Both the position numbers and the translations under genes were made by a program. A stretch of 38,678 nt of DNA. Origin: an uncultured archaeon (lineage in GTDB: Archaea; Asgardarchaeota; Lokiarchaeia; Helarchaeales; HEL-GB-A). The stretch lies in assembly GCA_964353755.1 (NCBI GenBank), contig CAYGYC010000002.1, forward strand, positions 1-38,678. The letters are read 5' to 3'. The notes beneath the pieces are model-generated. The model was not told where the DNA came from, made no database searches, and was given only the letters and a program-made list of their open reading frames with translations. The number at the start of each line of letters is the position of its first letter. Position 1 is the first letter of the stretch. Below, piece by piece: positions 3,000 through 18,344 of this stretch.

Positions 3000-4457
3000 T
3001 TAAAGATCTCCCGTAATTCTTTTCTTGTTCAACACCTCTAGGACAGCTGGCATAAAAACGCGAATAACTTTCTTGTAAATTTTGGTATTTTCTGGAATGG
3101 GCGATTTGGTAGTCGCAAATCGTACCATCTTTTGTATGGCTGCTTCAAAACTCGCATAATTTTTAAGTCCCACAAATCCTAGTATAGCGGCGCCCAGAGC
3201 GGCGCCATCCTTATTTTCTGCCACGCGAATTGGTTTATTGATAATATCTGCAAATATTTGAGACCATAAATCGCTGTTCATTCCTCCGCCATCGACCCGT
3301 AACTCTGTGGCTTTTTGCCTAGCCAGGCCCTCTAATAAGCCTAGATACACCTGCGCTGATAATGCAGCGCTTTCCAGAATAGCACGAATAAAATGTCCGC
3401 GAGTATGGCCTAACCCTAGAGCCATCAACTGGGCTTTCTTGAAAATGTAGAGCGGGAGGATCAATAATCCTTCACTCCCGGGTGGGACTTTTTGGGCTTC
3501 CGCCATCAAAGAATCATATATATTAATTTTTTTATCCATACATTCCTTAACTTGCGCTTGGGAAAAATTATCACGGAACCAATTCAGGGCAGTGCCTGTA
3601 CCCGGCATAGTACCTTCTAAAACCCATTTATTTTTTATGACATGGGGAAGGCTGAAGATGGGAATGTCCCCGGGCGAGGGAACGGGATGATCAACGACCA
3701 AATCAACAAAAGTACCGGTCCCCGTTGTGGTTTTTGCCTGCCCATTATTAACCACACCCAGCCCCAACGCAGAACATTGTTGATCACCGCCGCCTACTAT
3801 GATCGGTATTCCTTTTTTCAACCCTAATTCCGTAGCCGCAGCTTCCGAGAGTTCTCCAACAATTTCCCCGGGCATGCGGAGTTCAGGCCATAATTCCACT
3901 GGTAATCCATATAATTCGGCTAATTGCTCATCCCATTGATAGGAATCCATATTTAAAATTCCATAAATGGCATTGGAGGGGTCAGTAACTAGTGCCCCAC
4001 AGAGTTTCATGTAACAAAAGGCATCAGGAAAGATGATTTTAGAGGCGTTATTGAATAGGTTTGGATGATTATTTTTAAGCCATAATAACTTTGGAATGGC
4101 TCTCCTTAGCCCGCCTTCTTTTTGAAACTCCTTCATATCTGAAACTTCCCGTTCATCCATCCAGGTCAAAGCGGGATGCAAAATTTCACCGGTTTTGGAT
4201 ATGAAGGTACTGGATGCTCTATGAAATGCGGCCGATATGCCGATTAAATCAGCTGGATTAATTGCTTTACTCACTTTTTTGCATGTATTTTTGATTGCAT
4301 TCCACCATATAGCCGGATCTTGTTCAGATATTCCAGGAGGTTGTCTTTCAAGTTTGTATTCCTCATAAAATTTCACTAGTTCTTTTCCATCAATATCAAA
4401 AACAATACTTCTTGCCCCAGTTGTACCTACATCAAAAACTAGCAACAAATTGCTCAT
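3000..4457 (-). CDS. FGGY-family carbohydrate kinase (glycerol/xylulose-kinase-like)
   Basis: N-terminal actin-fold phosphate-1 motif LLVFDVGTTGARSIVFD and GGGDQQCSALGLG (GDQQ as in glycerol kinases). Length is ~485 aa. A GGTGA Shine-Dalgarno lies 4 nt upstream. Sits directly downstream of the G3P dehydrogenase gene. Confidence 0.85.
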   Translation of the reverse strand: MSNLLLVFDVGTTGARSIVFDIDGKELVKFYEEYKLERQPPGISEQDPAIWWNAIKNTCKKVSKAINPADLIGISAAFHRASSTFISKTGEILHPALTWMDEREVSDMKEFQKEGGLRRAIPKLLWLKNNHPNLFNNASKIIFPDAFCYMKLCGALVTDPSNAIYGILNMDSYQWDEQLAELYGLPVELWPELRMPGEIVGELSEAAATELGLKKGIPIIVGGGDQQCSALGLGVVNNGQAKTTTGTGTFVDLVVDHPVPSPGDIPIFSLPHVIKNKWVLEGTMPGTGTALNWFRDNFSQAQVKECMDKKINIYDSLMAEAQKVPPGSEGLLILPLYIFKKAQLMALGLGHTRGHFIRAILESAALSAQVYLGLLEGLARQKATELRVDGGGMNSDLWSQIFADIINKPIRVAENKDGAALGAAILGFVGLKNYASFEAAIQKMVRFATTKSPIPENTKIYKKVIRVFMPAVLEVLNKKRITGDL

Positions 4458-12937: not shown

Positions 12938-13030
12938 ATTGAATGTGATAAAGATTTTTGAAGAAAAAACCATAATCATTTTATTGTCTTTTTTAATTTA
13001 TTACATTGAATTTGATAAAGATTTTTGAAG
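12938..13030 (+). promoter_or_regulatory. pair of 26-nt direct repeats (12938-12963 and 13005-13030, 25/26 identical) in a divergent intergenic region
   Basis: The repeats are ATTGAATGTGATAAAGATTTTTGAAG and ATTGAATTTGATAAAGATTTTTGAAG, spaced 67 nt start to start. The second copy ends 8 nt before ATG 13039. Each copy contains an A/T-rich TATA-like core (GATAAAGATTTTT). Confidence 0.5.
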
Positions 13031-13038
13031 GAATACAC

Positions 13039-13521
13039 ATGAGTTTTTCAAATCCAATCGAGAAGGTACTACAGTTAATCAACAATTTGAAACTTTTCAC
13101 CGAAGTCAAGGGGATAGGTGAAATTCATACAGAAGTAAATAATTTATTACGCGATGTTTATGACCTTTTTATTGGATTAGAATCGTTCAACCGAAAAAAG
13201 CGATTAGTATTATTGAAGCTAGCCCATTTATTTCCAAAAACACTGACAACCGCTGAATTGCGACAGGTGATGGAGTATTCAGATAACACCTCTTTAAGTT
13301 ATGTGCGAAGTGAAATTAAGGAGCTTGAAGATGCAAATTTAATAATAATAAATAAGTATAAGGACAAGAAACTGCCTTTTCAGTGTCAGATAAACCATAA
13401 ACACCGGCTTATGCGACTTTTAATCGCGTTAACGAGCTTTGGAACAGAATACAAAGAAATGGTAGCAGAACAGGTAGAAAAACAGTCAAAAGAACCTGTG
13501 GAGGATCAAGATGACCAGTAA
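13039..13521 (+). CDS. winged-helix (wHTH) protein with acidic tail, putative transcription regulator
   Basis: The ATG at 13039 is preferred over the tracked TTG at 13006. TLTTAELRQVMEYSDNTSLSYVRSEIKELEDANLIIINKYKDKKLPFQCQIN fits helix-turn-helix plus wing. No SD is present, so the mRNA may be leaderless. Confidence 0.6.
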   Translation: MSFSNPIEKVLQLINNLKLFTEVKGIGEIHTEVNNLLRDVYDLFIGLESFNRKKRLVLLKLAHLFPKTLTTAELRQVMEYSDNTSLSYVRSEIKELEDANLIIINKYKDKKLPFQCQINHKHRLMRLLIALTSFGTEYKEMVAEQVEKQSKEPVEDQDDQ

Positions 13522-14206
13522 AATCGAGTACGATGAGGAAGTACTCCACTTTTTAAACGGCTTGCGGCGTTATATTACCGCTAGAGCATTGGCGATCTAT
13601 ATAATTGTTGGAGGCGCAACGGTTGCCTTCGGATTTATATTCTATTACTTTCTCTATTGGATTCTGCCTCCCATATACAGTTTGCTGTTTTTTATTTTAA
13701 TAATGATAGGTTTTACAGTGGGATTAAATGTATTACTTCAGCGAAGTCTGTTAATCTATCATCTTCCCCCTTATACTCTAGATATTGCTAAAAAGGCAGG
13801 CTTTAAAATTGACGAGTTTAAAATTCATTTCATTTTCAAACGAGCTAATATCTATCCCACTTCAAATATTTTCATAAGAATCGGCCTACTTGTGGGATAT
13901 ATACCCTTTACCGAATTGCGATTTAAATCGTATAAAATGAGTTTAACGAGTGAGAAGTTATGTGAAAAAACTGATTTATTGGGTTCGCTTATAGTGAAAG
14001 AGATTGCAGAGCGAAACCTGTTAGCATGGGATATGGAGAGTGATAGTAAACGAGTTGGTGTAACCCGTAAAAAAATAGGGGGATTGCGCCTTAAAACAAT
14101 TTGTTTACCCGAAGAAGTGACAGGTCGATTGATGCAAATGGGAAAGGCAATCCGAGAATGGCAAAAAGCCCTCGAAAAGGTAGCCCATTTCGCGCTTTCA
14201 AGTTGA
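13511..14206 (+). CDS. membrane protein (2 N-terminal TM helices plus soluble C-terminal domain), unknown function
   Basis: The ATG overlaps the upstream gene by 11 nt and is preceded by a strong GGAGGA Shine-Dalgarno at 13500-13505. Hydrophobic segments include ALAIYIIVGGATVAFGFIFYYFLYWIL and LLFFILIMIGFTVGLNVLL. Confidence 0.65.
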   Translation: MTSKIEYDEEVLHFLNGLRRYITARALAIYIIVGGATVAFGFIFYYFLYWILPPIYSLLFFILIMIGFTVGLNVLLQRSLLIYHLPPYTLDIAKKAGFKIDEFKIHFIFKRANIYPTSNIFIRIGLLVGYIPFTELRFKSYKMSLTSEKLCEKTDLLGSLIVKEIAERNLLAWDMESDSKRVGVTRKKIGGLRLKTICLPEEVTGRLMQMGKAIREWQKALEKVAHFALSS

Positions 14207-14221
14207 CAGGACGGAAAATTT

Positions 14222-15325
14222 ATGTCCTCCTTGTTAAAACGCCTCTTTGGCGGAATTAAAGTTTACTTTGGTAAAGAATTTCGCTATTATACCATAATTT
14301 ATCTCTTCTTTTTAATTGTTATTGCAATTATCTCCCCACTTTTCATTTTGCTTGATATTGAACGCTTGAATAATATCGAACTTGTTTATATCATAGGACT
14401 TTCATCTACAGTCATGTATTTTCTATACATCTTTTTAACATTAAATAAGCGAATGCGCGAAATTTTCTTTCACACGAAATGGAAATATCTTTTATCCATC
14501 CCTCTGCCAATTGGAGGCGCGATAGGATTCAGTTTTGCGATAACTTTTCTGGTTGAATTAAATCTGACAGTGCTTTATTATATAGTAACCTTTATCTTAT
14601 TAGGGGCATTCTTAATATGGTTAATCATTCAGTTGTTATCTTTTGGATTATTTGTAAAGGATTTCAATATTTATCTTCTAGAAAAAATTGGATCAAATTC
14701 TGAAAAACGCAATAACTGGCTAGTTATTTTTTCTATTTTATTTCAAACGGCTATGATCATCTATTGCGTGGCTCTTAGAGATAGTTATATAGAAATAACA
14801 CATTTGATATCTTTTCCATTTGATGTTTGGTTATTTCCCTTGATCTGTACCATTCTCTCTGGAATCCTCTTAATTGTTGCACTATGCCAAAAAAAGTATC
14901 ATTCGGCATTCTTCACGACGAGCTATATATTCCTCTACAGCTTATTTTTACTTTATCATATAGGCTATCTGATGCTTGTTATCTATAGCACTGAATTCTT
15001 TATAGGAGCAATTAATCTGCTGAGTCTCCTTATCTTCACCTTTTTACTGTTTTATACCTTTCAGGCTGTTGGAGGCGCGATAAAAACAAGATTAAAGCGA
15101 TGGTGGCAACCCTTGAGTTTCTTTTTATTCACTATTGTTCTCTTATATGCGACTTGGAGTGTTACTTTTCTGTATGAATTATCTGAAAAGATCGCTGACA
15201 AGCTTCTAGAACTATATTTTTGGAGTATTAATCATTTCATTTCCTATATCTTTGGAATTGTCTTACTAATTATTACGGTGTTCCTTTTCCTGGGACGGTT
15301 GAAAAGAAAAAAAGAAGTAGAATAA
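14222..15325 (+). CDS. polytopic membrane protein (about 9-10 TM helices), unknown function
   Basis: 367-aa very hydrophobic ORF, 15 nt after the previous gene, with a basic C-terminal tail (GRLKRKKEVE). No transporter signature recognised. Confidence 0.7.
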   Translation: MSSLLKRLFGGIKVYFGKEFRYYTIIYLFFLIVIAIISPLFILLDIERLNNIELVYIIGLSSTVMYFLYIFLTLNKRMREIFFHTKWKYLLSIPLPIGGAIGFSFAITFLVELNLTVLYYIVTFILLGAFLIWLIIQLLSFGLFVKDFNIYLLEKIGSNSEKRNNWLVIFSILFQTAMIIYCVALRDSYIEITHLISFPFDVWLFPLICTILSGILLIVALCQKKYHSAFFTTSYIFLYSLFLLYHIGYLMLVIYSTEFFIGAINLLSLLIFTFLLFYTFQAVGGAIKTRLKRWWQPLSFFLFTIVLLYATWSVTFLYELSEKIADKLLELYFWSINHFISYIFGIVLLIITVFLFLGRLKRKKEVE

Positions 15326-15865
15326 TTATTCCAAACTAACTGCCCAAATCGTTTCTCGGCCTTTCTTGCCGTCGCGCTTAATTTTCCCTGAAAGCACTAG
15401 TTCGAGAAGGTAGCGTCGGATTGTTTGCGTATTAAACTTGAAATAATTCTTTAATTCGGAGATGGTCATTTTCTGCTGTTCTTGGAGCATATCGAACATG
15501 TTTTCTTTGATGGATTTCGGCTGCGCGGGTTTCGAGGCTACTTTAGGATAATACCGTTGTGCAAATTTCAGTAATTCGCTGTAATTCTGCAGACTTTTAC
15601 TCCCATCCAGAAAGAGGAGCAATAAGTTCATTTCTTCGGGATACGCAACGACATAGAAATCTTCAAAGAAAATGGCCCGGGGTTTGATTCCATTGCCGCT
15701 TTGAAACATTAAATAGAAGGGGGTACAGAATTTTTCTAGATCGACTTCAAAGTCCTTGGCCAGAGATTTATTCCATTCGATTATTGGTCCTTTTAATGTA
15801 TCGAATCCAATCATCGCTATTTTCTTAACTTGATCCGTTGTCATTTCCATCTTTCTCTTCACCAT
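15326..15865 (-). CDS. longin/roadblock-like domain + C-terminal winged-helix fusion protein (putative GTPase partner)
   Basis: The N-terminal ~100 aa (IAMIGFDTLKGPIIEWNK...FYVVAYPEEMNLLLLFLDGS...) looks like an alpha/beta regulatory module. The C-terminus MTISELKNYFKFNTQTIRRYLLELVLSGKIKRDGKKGRETIWAV is wHTH-like. Possible starts are 15865, 15850 (preceded by a GGTGA SD), 15844 or 15814. The first three overlap the GTPase 3' end. Confidence 0.75.
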   Translation of the reverse strand: MVKRKMEMTTDQVKKIAMIGFDTLKGPIIEWNKSLAKDFEVDLEKFCTPFYLMFQSGNGIKPRAIFFEDFYVVAYPEEMNLLLLFLDGSKSLQNYSELLKFAQRYYPKVASKPAQPKSIKENMFDMLQEQQKMTISELKNYFKFNTQTIRRYLLELVLSGKIKRDGKKGRETIWAVSLE

Positions 15866-16340
15866 TCGTTGCCTTTAATAATTCTTTTATCAAAATATAA
15901 TACAGTTTCTCTTTTTGATGCGTATCTATTGCTGTTAGTCCATAAGTTGGCACTTGTAAGACATTCTCAACGCGTTTTGCACTGAAATGACCATCGATAT
16001 CCTGTTTATTAGCTATTGCCACAACACGCGCGTTCTGGTGCGTGTGATTCACCCAATCCACCAACTGCTTAGTTTGCAGAACATTTTGAGGCGATGAATC
16101 CGTTACCACGAAGACTAAAAATGAACCGTTTAAAAATTGATCCCAAAACGGTTGAAATGCCGCTTGTCCTCCTATGTCCCAAAGTTTCACCTCATGTTCC
16201 CCAAATTGTAAACTGGCGAAGTCTAATCCGATGGTCGGCTTGTAATCGAGTGGGGGGACTTTCCCTGATAATAATTTTATCAACGTGGATTTTCCTACTG
16301 ACGGATATCCTAAGAAGGCTACTTTTACGCTTACTCCCAT
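15825..16340 (-). CDS. small GTPase, Arf/Sar-like (Ras superfamily)
   Basis: G1 is GYPSVGKST, switch I is KPTIG, G3 is WDIGGQ followed by AAFQPFW (Arf-type WDxGGQ..RPLW), and G4 is NKQD. The 171-aa protein begins MG. Confidence 0.9.
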   Translation of the reverse strand: MGVSVKVAFLGYPSVGKSTLIKLLSGKVPPLDYKPTIGLDFASLQFGEHEVKLWDIGGQAAFQPFWDQFLNGSFLVFVVTDSSPQNVLQTKQLVDWVNHTHQNARVVAIANKQDIDGHFSAKRVENVLQVPTYGLTAIDTHQKEKLYYILIKELLKATNGEEKDGNDNGSS

Positions 16341-16403
16341 TGTAAATTCATCTCATTCATATGTACTGTTTTTAAAATTAGTAGCCCTAAAAAAAGAATT
16401 AAA

Positions 16404-16428
16404 CCCGAATAATATGGTGATATTCGGG
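16404..16428. promoter_or_regulatory. 8-bp-arm inverted repeat CCCGAATA-n9-TATTCGGG in the divergent GTPase/nrdJ promoter region
   Basis: Read directly from the sequence. A related palindromic CCGAATATTC recurs at 16449-16458. Both lie between TATA-like A/T boxes for the two divergent genes. Confidence 0.35.
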
Positions 16429-16514: not shown

Positions 16515-18344
16515 ATGAAAGTGTTAAGTAAAACGGCAATGGTGGTTTTGGAGCAGCGTTATTTGGCAAGGGATATCCATGGCAACATTATCGAAACGCC
16601 TGAGAAGATGTTTCGACGGGTGGCTAATAATATTGCCGCGGTAGATAAGATATATGGCATATCTCCAAAAGAAATTCAGGATATTGAAGAAAGGTTTTAT
16701 GATTTAATGGTAAATTTGGATTTTCTCCCCAATTCACCGACCTTAATGAATGCCGGTCGTAAATATCAGCAGTTAGCTGCATGTTTTGTATTACCCATTG
16801 AAGATTCTATAGTAAGTATTTTTGATTCACTAAAATATGCCGCAATCATCCATCAAAGTGGGGGAGGGACCGGCTTTTCCTTTTCCAATTTACGGCCCAG
16901 AGGCGATATCGTGAAATCGTCAAATGGGGTGGCTTCTGGTCCTGTGTCGTTCATGAAAATTTATGATGCGTCCTCCGAGCAAATTAAGCAGGGGGGGATG
17001 CGGAGAGGCGCGAATATGGGGATTCTGCGAGTGGATCATCCGGATATTATTGAATTTATCACGATCAAGGATGATCCAACGGTATTAACAAATTTTAATA
17101 TCAGTGTTGCCATTACGGATGCGTTCATGGATGCGATAAAACGGAATGAAGCCTATCCGCTTATAAATCCAAGAAATAGACAAGTAATGCGCAAGGTAGA
17201 GGCGAGGAGAATCTTCGATCTGATGGTGTTAATGGCATGGAAGAATGCGGATCCTGGCGTTATTTTCATTGATTCCATAAATAAAGCAAATCCAACACCT
17301 CATCTCGGCAAAATAGACGCCACCAACCCATGCGGGGAAGTCCCTCTTTTACCGTGGGAAGCCTGTAATTTGGGCTCGATTAATGTGGCAAATTTTGTTC
17401 AGAACGGAGGAATTGATTATCCAAGGCTTGCAAAAACAGTACAAACCGCCGTGCATTTCTTGGATAATGTAATAGATGCAAGTAAATATCCCGTGAAAGA
17501 AATTGATAGGATGGTGAAAGGGAATCGTAAAATAGGTTTAGGCGTGATGGGATTTGCAGATTTACTGATTCAATTGAAGATCACCTATGGATCTGAAAAG
17601 TCTTATGAAATAGCGGATGAATTAATGGATTTTATCGAAAAGGAAGCCTATAAGGCATCAGAAAAGTTAGCCGAAGCGAAAAGGGTGTTCCCTAACTACA
17701 AAGGAAGCATTTATGACGGGAAAACAAAGCTTCGGAATGCGACTTTGACGAGTATTGCCCCCACCGGCACCCTAAGTATTATTGCAGGCTGTTCCAGTAG
17801 TATTGAAACGTTATTTGGGGTGGTCTTTCGCCGGCGAATTCTAGATGGACGAACTTTTTTAGATGTTAATCCCTATTTTGAGAAATTAGCTAAGGAAATG
17901 GGAATTTATAGTACCACGTTAATCGAGAAAATTGCCAATCAGGGATCAATTAGAGATATTCCTGAAATTCCAGAAGAACTTCAAGAAATATGTGTGACGG
18001 CTTTTGAGGTTTCTCCCGAATCTCATGTAAAAATGCAAGCAACTTTTCAAAAACATGTGGATAATGCCGTTTCTAAAACGGTAAATCTTCCTCAGACGGC
18101 AACTATTAAAGATGTTGAAAAAATCTTTTTGCTGGCATATGATCTGGGCTGTAAAGGAATCACGGTTTATAGATATGGGTCAAAAGAAAGCCAAGTTTTA
18201 TCAATTGGAGAAGAAGAAAAAAGTTCAACAGAATTTCACTCAAAAACCAGTGAAAAATGCCCTGTCTGCGGCTCAGAAAATTTAGTTCATCAGGCATCCT
18301 GTAATTTTTGTAAAGATTGCGGATATTCTATTTGTTTATTATAG
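16515..18344 (+). CDS. nrdJ: class II (adenosylcobalamin-dependent) ribonucleotide reductase with C-terminal Cys-rich zinc finger
   Basis: Active-site block [34 protein letters not shown], and C-terminal [26 protein letters not shown]. No ATP-cone and no intein-sized insert. Confidence 0.92.

Follow-up and report, generated by a model that had tools for sequence, protein, structure and literature searches.

A conserved Asgard gene pair encodes an Arf-like small GTPase and a predicted roadblock/longin protein fused to a winged helix

Pairs of a small GTPase and a roadblock or longin protein are known. In design, the eukaryotic proteins NPRL2 and NPRL3 (GATOR1/SEACIT), a longin GTPase-activating protein (GAP) for RagA/Gtr1, are among the closest to the pair described here; a longin domain is followed by two or three domains of the winged helix-turn-helix (wHTH) type (PMC3747258, PMC3521125). 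The conservons of Streptomyces and Mycobacterium (CvnA-D), which tie GTPase state to gene regulation, encode a roadblock protein, a helix-turn-helix protein and a GTPase separately (PMC8510531). In MglA/MglB, the classical prokaryotic operon of GTPase and roadblock, and in the widespread archaeal MglAB operons, a small GTPase gene lies beside a gene for a roadblock-fold regulator, MglB, that docks as a dimer. MglB is a GAP that does not supply an arginine finger. The substrate of C9orf72-SMCR8 is an Arf protein, and the classical Arf-like/longin pair is formed by SRβ and the longin-type SRX domain of SRα, which binds SRβ in its GTP form (PMC3747258). Here, we describe two genes at positions 15326-16340 (minus strand) of a 38,678-nucleotide (nt) stretch of DNA from an uncultured archaeon of the Helarchaeales (Asgardarchaeota; contig CAYGYC010000002.1). 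We refer to this AT-rich stretch (34-41% G+C) as the window. The upstream gene encodes an Arf-like GTPase, and the downstream gene encodes a protein, hereafter the partner, with a predicted roadblock/longin-type domain joined to a winged helix. An earlier note, made from the letters of the window, knew of no characterised example of the architecture; NPRL2/NPRL3 provide one with several wHTH domains, and the conservons hold the parts as separate proteins.

The two genes are found together throughout much of the Asgard group. A profile search recovered 509 partner homologues (E ≤ 1e-3), nearly all 162-190 amino acids (aa) long. Their annotations read hypothetical protein or, taken solely from the wHTH, "DUF977" or "biotin operon repressor". 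The closest, at 64-74% identity, are from Helarchaeota metagenome-assembled genomes (MAGs), which marks the window as Helarchaeota-like. Taking contigs from one genome per species gave 105 loci with a relative; linkage was counted for 80 of these and for four more that an exact protein look-up supplied. A GTPase orthologue was immediately upstream of the partner gene, on the same strand, at 83 of the 84 loci, and the lone exception is cut by a contig end. The MAG labels of the 83 loci are Helarchaeota, Promethearchaeota/Lokiarchaeia, Thor-, Hermod-, Hod- and Odinarchaeota. Outside Helarchaeota, identity of the GTPase orthologues is 38-48%. The pairing is retained in a Sifarchaeia variant and in three further divergent representatives. 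Hence, with 509 partner homologues and a pair that recurs at 83 of 84 loci, both open reading frames are real and not due to chance; their placement in the earlier note was accurate, and the gene order whose conservation it had left to be checked is syntenic.

The junction between the genes is also conserved. Across 82 orthologous loci, the distance from stop to start codon is mostly -4 nt and otherwise -1, -11, 0 or +1. The few junctions at +40 to +52, and two at +17, are probably start-codon miscalls. Judged by gene order and junction, the pair is a translationally coupled operon in most of the Asgard lineages sampled. Two contigs with the operon come from MAGs labelled Candidatus Deferrimicrobium (L005, DATKTP010000010.1) and Nanopelagicaceae (L071, DATKTW010000082.1), and are probably mis-binned Asgard contigs. 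In Jordarchaeia (L092-L097; one MAG is labelled Thermoproteota), a 126-aa homologue is encoded between genes for an amino-acid permease and a UDP-glucose dehydrogenase.

The upstream gene (15825-16340, minus strand) encodes a 171-aa protein with an acidic C-terminal tail. Its translation contains a complete set of G motifs, as had been read from the sequence. Thus, G1 is G11-YPSVGKST-19, G2 is P35-TIG-38, G3 is W54-DIGGQ-59 (with the catalytic Gln59, and followed by AAFQPFW), G4 is N111-KQD-114 and G5 is T136-A-I. Arf was the best Pfam family (66.2 bits, E 3.3e-18, cut-off 22.3); Roc, Ras and Gtr1_RagA scored 52, 42 and 17 bits respectively. When the sequence was compared with PDB, the Asgard ArfR structures 8oul and 8ouk matched best, then Arl1, Arl2 and Arl3. 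The family profile placed Arl3 at 86 bits, ArfR 8oul at 76, Arf1 at ~71 and Rab1 at ~70; the margin of Arf over Rab in these scores is small, and Rag was not found among the top 60 PDB matches. At the level of the G-domain sequence the GTPase is Arf-like, in agreement with the earlier proposal. By family profile, the solved ArfR proteins are no nearer to it than Arl3, and it is a candidate member of the "ArfL" group described previously.

Other Arf-like traits are less widely shared. The G3 region had been called Arf-type, and WDxGGQ is indeed kept throughout the family; the Trp that follows is specific to the Helarchaeota group. The Arf family is defined by an amphipathic helix at the N-terminus, which comes free when GTP binds (bioRxiv 10.1101/2024.02.28.582541). 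We found no such helix in the GTPase, which has 10 residues before the P-loop Gly and 5 before β1. This short N-terminus is common to the window protein and its close relatives. Most other orthologues begin MLSSEIDKL... and have ~15 residues ahead of the P-loop Gly; Arf1 has 23. Because there is no Arf N-terminal helix, the MG start, previously likened to that of Arf proteins, is coincidental; orthologues outside Helarchaeota begin ML, MK or MP. No membrane-targeting element was evident in the Helarchaeota GTPase. The equivalent of Ras Gly12 is a proline (P13; window 16302-16304) that is invariant across the GTPase family (GxPAVGKT). A proline at this P-loop position is unusual, with possible consequences for the way in which a GAP reaches the γ-phosphate, if it can do so at all.

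The partner gene (15326-15850, minus strand) encodes a protein of 174 aa if translation starts at ATG 15850, and of 179 aa if it starts at the alternative ATG 15865. Start candidates at 15865, 15850 and 15844 create overlaps with the GTPase gene of 41, 26 and 20 nt, and a Shine-Dalgarno-like GGTGA (15860-15864) is 8 nt upstream of ATG 15850; the earlier note had the overlaps and the GGTGA right. An alignment of 24 partner homologues opens at the equivalent of M6 (MELTTDQ...). Hence, position 15850 is the most likely start, because the homologues begin at the equivalent Met. The resulting junction (15825-15864, minus strand), with GGTGA inside the GTPase gene and a 26-nt overlap, fits the translational coupling suggested by the other loci.

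The N-terminal α/β domain of the partner (15536-15850, minus strand) was modelled using AlphaFold2. The full-length model, built from 25 sequences, had a mean predicted local distance difference test score (pLDDT) of 76.6. For a model of the N-domain only, built from 107 sequences, pLDDT was 79.7 and the predicted template modelling (TM) score was 0.74. Both models have the order β-β-α-β-β-β-α, assigned with DSSP, and a low-confidence linker; the full-length model adds a winged helix of three helices and two strands. An N-terminal helix is absent, as in longins, and there is a single C-terminal helix, where the longin order ends α2-α3. When the N-domain model was compared with PDB using Foldseek, all of the top 50 matches were roadblock, longin, σ/ζ-adaptin-type or Rag C-terminal domains (probability 1.00, or 0.99 for 8adl_S; TM 0.46-0.64; E 1.4e-3 to 1.8e-2). 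The best match was Roadblock2 of Prometheoarchaeum MK-D1 (E 1.4e-3, TM 0.63/0.60). Others were LAMTOR2-5, MglC, ζ-COP bound to Arf1, the Ykt6 longin domain, adaptor protein (AP) σ subunits, Rag C-terminal domains and yeast Npr2 (8adl_S). Roadblocks top the ranking and longins are slightly lower. On the strength of these models, the first ~100 residues of the partner belong to the roadblock/longin superfamily, and the structure prediction called for by the earlier note bears out its view of this region.

At the level of sequence the domain stands apart. Sequence profiles for Robl_LC7, Longin, Sybindin, Clat_adaptor_s, SRX and NPR2 gave no match to the N-domain. A HMMER search with the N-domain profile, against 1.84 billion representatives, found 26 clusters; all were from its own family and had lengths of ≤199 aa. 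Hence, going by this search, the N-domain is a tight, isolated and Asgard-only family, and the only other architectures in which it occurs are the Sifarchaeia, polybasic-tail and Jordarchaeia forms. Two segments hold thirteen of its invariant residues, and the conserved pattern FYLxFxxGN...PRAI is part of the second. Five of the thirteen are at the end of β1, in the β1-β2 loop and at the start of β2 (F21, D22, G26, P27 and W31). The other eight are in α1 and the α1-β3 loop (F50, Y51, L52, F54, G57, N58, P62 and A64; R63 is added in the core family). The topology of the predicted fold would bring both segments together at one end of the sheet. This is the end on which the GTPase rests in the structure of C9orf72-SMCR8-ARF1, above the parallel α1 helices (PMC8213707).

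The pair G26-P27, just before β2, does not vary among the aligned members (107 of 107), and all divergent representatives retain it. A 2025 survey found that a GP motif just before β2 separates GAP-type longins (NPRL2, FLCN, SMCR8 and C9orf72) from other longins, and that some Asgard longins also have the motif (PMC12290439). G26-P27 of the partner occupies this GP position. Arginine fingers of the GAP-type longins are NPRL2 R78, FLCN R164 and SMCR8 R147, which we placed between β4 and β5 by reading their sequences. We considered R63 (KPRAI) as an equivalent and rejected it; R63 is in the α1-β3 loop, not between β4 and β5, and divergent members replace it with L, K, Q or M. In hhalign comparisons, the HKKYSR78N loop of NPRL2 is an insertion that the partner family lacks. 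Since this loop is absent, and R63 is misplaced and replaceable, an arginine-finger GAP mechanism is unlikely. The partner could possibly be an MglB-like allosteric GAP, an exchange factor for guanine nucleotides (GEF) or a pure reader of nucleotide state.

The C-terminus of the partner (15329-15520, minus strand) is a winged helix, as had been predicted, and has a conserved basic wing (KIKRxGKKGRxxxW). Residues 116-169 of the 179-aa form matched the Pfam families HTH_DeoR (3.9e-07) and DUF977 (5.8e-06). Compared with PDB, the family profile matched Lrs14-like, Zα and MarR-type wHTH structures, and Foldseek matched the C-domain to MarR/ArsR-type regulators. Hence, the sequence affinities of the wHTH are with the prokaryotic DNA-binding families DeoR, HTH_11, ArsR, MarR, GntR and Lrs14.

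Some family members have a different C-terminus. In Sifarchaeia (L085/L086, Candidatus Sifarchaeum subterraneum, 3480-4061; P0130 and P0132), the N-domain and upstream GTPase are retained and the wHTH is swapped for an unrelated domain of ~90 aa with two G-hydrophobic-P/G hairpin-like motifs. We considered whether these motifs (G-I-P and G-L-G) were two helix-hairpin-helix elements, and found no support in Pfam or PDB sequences. Short members of 107-124 aa (P0134 and P0135) have a polybasic tail, e.g. KRKRRKRRRRRR, in place of the winged helix. A polyanion-binding C-terminus may be a common theme of the family.

A candidate operator is present upstream of the operon. The inverted repeat AATATCACCATATTA (16410-16424, minus strand) sits within a longer one, CCCGAATA-N9-TATTCGGG (16404-16428), and its position is conserved in Helarchaeota and in other Asgard lineages. 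All five Helarchaeota loci have this dyad; four contain exactly AATATCACNATATTA, and the locus on L005 has two substitutions (AATACTACGATATTA). In the 38.7-kb window, the Helarchaeota form has a single match, at the operon promoter. In lineages with proteins of only 33-45% identity, the corresponding position holds TAATAT-N4-(A/G)TATTAT-CCAG-ATTCATATTTTTT, and the dyad is centred at a median of -72 relative to the GTPase ATG. Of 77 distinct upstream regions, 23 contain the strict pattern TAATA[TC]-N4-[AG]TATTA. The expectation from dinucleotide shuffles was 0.085, and none of 385 random windows taken from these loci had the pattern. Across 736 kb of loci there were 28 matches, of which 23 were 40-130 nt upstream of the GTPase ATG. 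Loci L019 and L046 have a second copy of the dyad ~940 nt further upstream. The half-site centres are 10 base pairs (bp) apart, a spacing that suits a symmetric dimer such as a dimeric wHTH.

Immediately downstream of the dyad is a T-rich, TATA-like box, GTTTAATTCTTTTTTTA (16388-16404, minus strand), whose ATTC and T-run keep the same position across lineages. In loci L009-L083, the dyad and the ATTC/T-run box together fall between roughly -90 and -45 relative to the GTPase start codon. This box is likely the core promoter of the operon. A Shine-Dalgarno-like GAGATGA (16348-16354, minus strand), 8-14 nt upstream of the GTPase ATG, is invariant in the five Helarchaeota loci. Together, the sequence signals suggest that the wHTH of the partner probably binds the dyad and autoregulates the operon.

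Two further comparisons concern contact between the proteins. We calculated net charge for the GTPase tail (residues 157-171; 15828-15872) and for the linker of the partner (~99-116 of the 174-aa form; ~15503-15556). Helarchaeota proteins have a mean of -3.7 for the tail and +4.6 for the linker. Conversely, the mean for all other lineages is +2.7 for the tail, which is basic (IRRRLKE), and -9.3 for the linker. This reciprocal swap would fit contact between tail and linker. It is only a hint, because it is essentially one evolutionary event. The pairwise identities of GTPase and partner also correlate (mirror-tree, r = 0.81), a value confounded by shared phylogeny and given little weight.

We propose the following mechanism. 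Roadblock and longin domains are dimeric, and the N-domain of the partner would dimerise in the same way. The GTPase would dock on a conserved face to which the β1-β2 GP loop, the α1-β3 loop and the end of α1 contribute. Docking would read the nucleotide state of the GTPase, change it, or both; the partner may have GAP or GEF activity and, if it is a GAP, it would not use an arginine finger of the NPRL2/FLCN type. The two winged helices of the dimer would bind TAATAT-N4-ATATTA beside the promoter of their own operon. Expression of the operon, and possibly of other targets, would then depend on the state of the GTPase. The sequences and models show the folds and domain order, the strict synteny with its coupled junction, the dyad with its conserved position, and the invariant residues. 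We infer, rather than observe, binding of GTPase to partner, dimerisation, GAP/GEF activity, DNA binding by the wHTH and the sign of regulation. Overall, we rate the chances as slightly better than even that GTPase and platform form a cognate pair in which the winged helix binds DNA, with probable autoregulation of the operon.

How does this pair compare with the systems outlined above? The order of longin then wHTH is shared with NPRL2/NPRL3, as are the GP just before β2 and a small GTPase from the Arf/Rag side of the superfamily; the likeness is one of architecture only. Unlike NPRL2/3, which are 380-615 aa long, the partner has ~175 aa and one wHTH. It also lacks the TINI/INT region, the β4-β5 Arg78-type loop and a paralogous heterodimer partner nearby. 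Moreover, the present GTPase is Arf-like, with NKQD and without the C-terminal roadblock domain of Rag, and the two genes form an operon. Compared with the conservon, roadblock/longin and HTH are fused, the GTPase is Arf-like rather than MglA-like, and the system is archaeal and Asgard-restricted. No conserved CvnA-type, histidine kinase-like ATPase was found in the operon neighbourhood among the loci compared. DUF742 was not listed for the window wHTH, for 8 divergent members or among the 25 most-matched families of 107 members.

The remaining systems differ in other ways. Unlike MglB, the partner N-domain has no roadblock N-terminal helix and no Robl_LC7 match, and is joined to a wHTH. The GTPase differs from MglA in lacking an intrinsic switch-I arginine, and its best matches are Arl/Arf. 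C9orf72-SMCR8, FLCN-FNIP and Asgard FLCN/SMCR8-type longins share with the partner a GP in the β1-β2 loop, and the Arf substrate of C9orf72-SMCR8 recalls the Arf-like GTPase of this operon. Conversely, the partner has no DENN domain or equivalent arginine finger, and is presumed to be a homodimer, whereas C9orf72-SMCR8 and FLCN-FNIP are heterodimers. In contrast to SRα/SRβ, there is no NG domain, transmembrane anchor or nearby signal recognition particle gene, and SRX is not a top structural match.

There are other explanations. The partner might be a miniature longin GAP/GEF of the NPRL2/FLCN type that acts on the Arf/Rag-like GTPase in trafficking or nutrient signalling, its winged helix serving as a protein-protein or dimerisation module, with the dyad bound by some other factor. 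The same longin and wHTH architecture in NPRL2/3 (PMC3747258, PMC3521125), the invariant GP motif of GAP-type longins, the presence of yeast Npr2 (8adl_S) and ESCRT-II among the Foldseek matches, and the reported abundance of NPRL2-like longins in Asgard archaea all speak for this. However, homology to NPRL2 is not significant and the arginine-finger loop is absent. The single wHTH has sequence affinity to prokaryotic DNA-binding families, and a dyad conserved in position, with 10-bp half-site spacing, suits a dimeric wHTH. Nor does the Helarchaeota GTPase have an evident membrane-targeting element. We consider this explanation rather unlikely.

Alternatively, the pair could resemble SRβ/SRX, with the GTP-bound GTPase held by an effector that leaves its cycle unchanged, and the GTPase recruiting the wHTH protein to DNA or elsewhere, or releasing it. 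In keeping with this, SRX is a longin-type domain that binds Arf-like SRβ in the GTP form (PMC3747258), the partner has no Arg in the canonical catalytic position, R63 is dispensable in divergent members, and the complementary charges of tail and linker suggest stable binding. Conversely, SRX structures are not in the top 50 Foldseek matches, and most characterised roadblock/longin platforms alter nucleotide state. An effector of this sort overlaps with the cognate pair that we propose, differing only on catalysis, and present evidence does not separate the two; in its strict, non-catalytic form we think it improbable. A third possibility is an ordinary one-component transcription factor, in which the N-domain senses a small molecule and the GTPase is a co-transcribed target that the partner does not contact. 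Fusion of a small α/β sensor to a wHTH is the commonest design of prokaryotic regulators, the N-domain has no sequence tie to GTPase regulators, and the Jordarchaeia domain has no neighbouring GTPase. Against such a factor, the structural neighbours are all GTPase-docking roadblock/longin proteins, with no ligand-binding folds among them. The GTPase is linked by coupled junctions at 83 of 84 loci while all other neighbours vary, the pairing outlasts replacement of the wHTH in Sifarchaeia, and the tail and linker charges swap reciprocally. Hence, we regard it as very unlikely.

Several observations count against a DNA-binding cognate pair. The N-domain assignment has Foldseek E values of only 1e-3 to 2e-2 and a moderate model confidence (pLDDT 77-80). 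Weak Foldseek E values are usual for α/β domains of 100 residues. Residues 1-105 match no Pfam family (0 at E ≤ 10), NCBIfam family or PDB sequence. The β4-β5 turn of the partner, PEEMN (consensus PKDLEL), has no Arg. In hhalign, the partner family profile showed nothing in the longin region when compared with human NPRL2. We also used an alignment of 16 NPRL2/Npr2 sequences (14 NPRL2 homologues, human NPRL2 and yeast Npr2); the result was collinear, with the GP motifs aligned, at P 0.16 and a probability of 0.4%. Homology to NPRL2 is not claimed, because this profile-profile alignment is not significant. The homologue in Jordarchaeia consists of the N-domain only and has no adjacent GTPase. 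With regard to DNA binding, the winged helices of NPRL2/3 and ESCRT-II make protein contacts and not DNA contacts. Both the dyad and the genomes that carry it are AT-rich, the loci share phylogeny, the dyad patterns fit only about half of the upstream regions, and another transcription factor could bind the dyad.

The genes around the operon differ between lineages. Helarchaeota loci have a gene for a class II ribonucleotide reductase and a convergent trio whose products are a 171-aa protein and two membrane proteins. Loci of other lineages have genes for DUF2070, an RsmB-type methyltransferase and PAC2. Among the loci compared, we found no other neighbour gene common to Helarchaeota and the other lineages. 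We therefore set aside DUF2070, the RsmB-type methyltransferase, PAC2, the reductase and the membrane proteins as functional clues, none being conserved across lineages. Membership of an anti-phage defence system was also considered and rejected; PADLOC gave only trivial matches at the level of P-loop and HTH (E 4e-4 to 6e-3).

In the window, the trio occupies 13006-15325 (plus strand). It encodes a soluble 171-aa protein, with only a faint FUR-like match, and polytopic membrane proteins of 231 and 367 aa that match no Pfam family. All Helarchaeota loci keep the trio, convergent to the operon; other lineages lack it. The gene for the 367-aa membrane protein (14222-15325, plus strand) and the partner gene abut without a spacer at TAATTA (15323-15328). 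Hence, there is no space for a separate terminator between them. On the other side of the operon, a divergent gene (16515-18344, plus strand) encodes a class II ribonucleotide reductase of 609 aa that is free of inteins. On two other Helarchaeota contigs (L003, 2387-5332; L004, 33-2927), the reductase has an intein with a LAGLIDADG domain, and is 964-981 aa long.

Asgard archaea, the prokaryotes most closely related to eukaryotes, have genes for dozens of small GTPases and for dozens of roadblock/longin proteins. The regulators of their Arf-type GTPases have been stated to be unidentified (PMC11914678). In the cultured strain MK-D1, GTPase genes are generally not in operons with roadblock/longin genes, and pairs cannot be read from genome layout (PMC10933270). 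The present operon is an exception to that pattern, being a strictly linked GTPase/platform pair with a conserved candidate operator. The Asgard core gene set of Liu et al. includes unnamed families of roadblock/longin proteins and of small GTPases, and the pair may be among them. We found no published description of the partner family or the operon in the literature covered, which was incomplete.

If the winged helix binds the dyad, the operon would be a compact case of a Ras-superfamily GTPase wired to transcription. To our knowledge, transcription gated by a Ras-superfamily GTPase has not been demonstrated in archaea. If the winged helix is instead a scaffold, the pair would be the simplest known design relative of the eukaryotic Rag GAPs that combine longin and winged helix. 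A more speculative idea, which we hold to be decidedly improbable, is that the operon is a surviving relative of the ancestral module behind NPRL2/NPRL3, and that its archaeal version ties DNA binding and transcription directly to the nucleotide state of an Arf/Rag-like GTPase; if so, it would be a GTPase-gated transcription factor. Both proteins are ~170 aa, making direct in vitro tests of binding, GAP/GEF activity and DNA binding feasible. The main value of the operon is that it offers Asgard cell biology a small and clearly paired GTPase/partner system.

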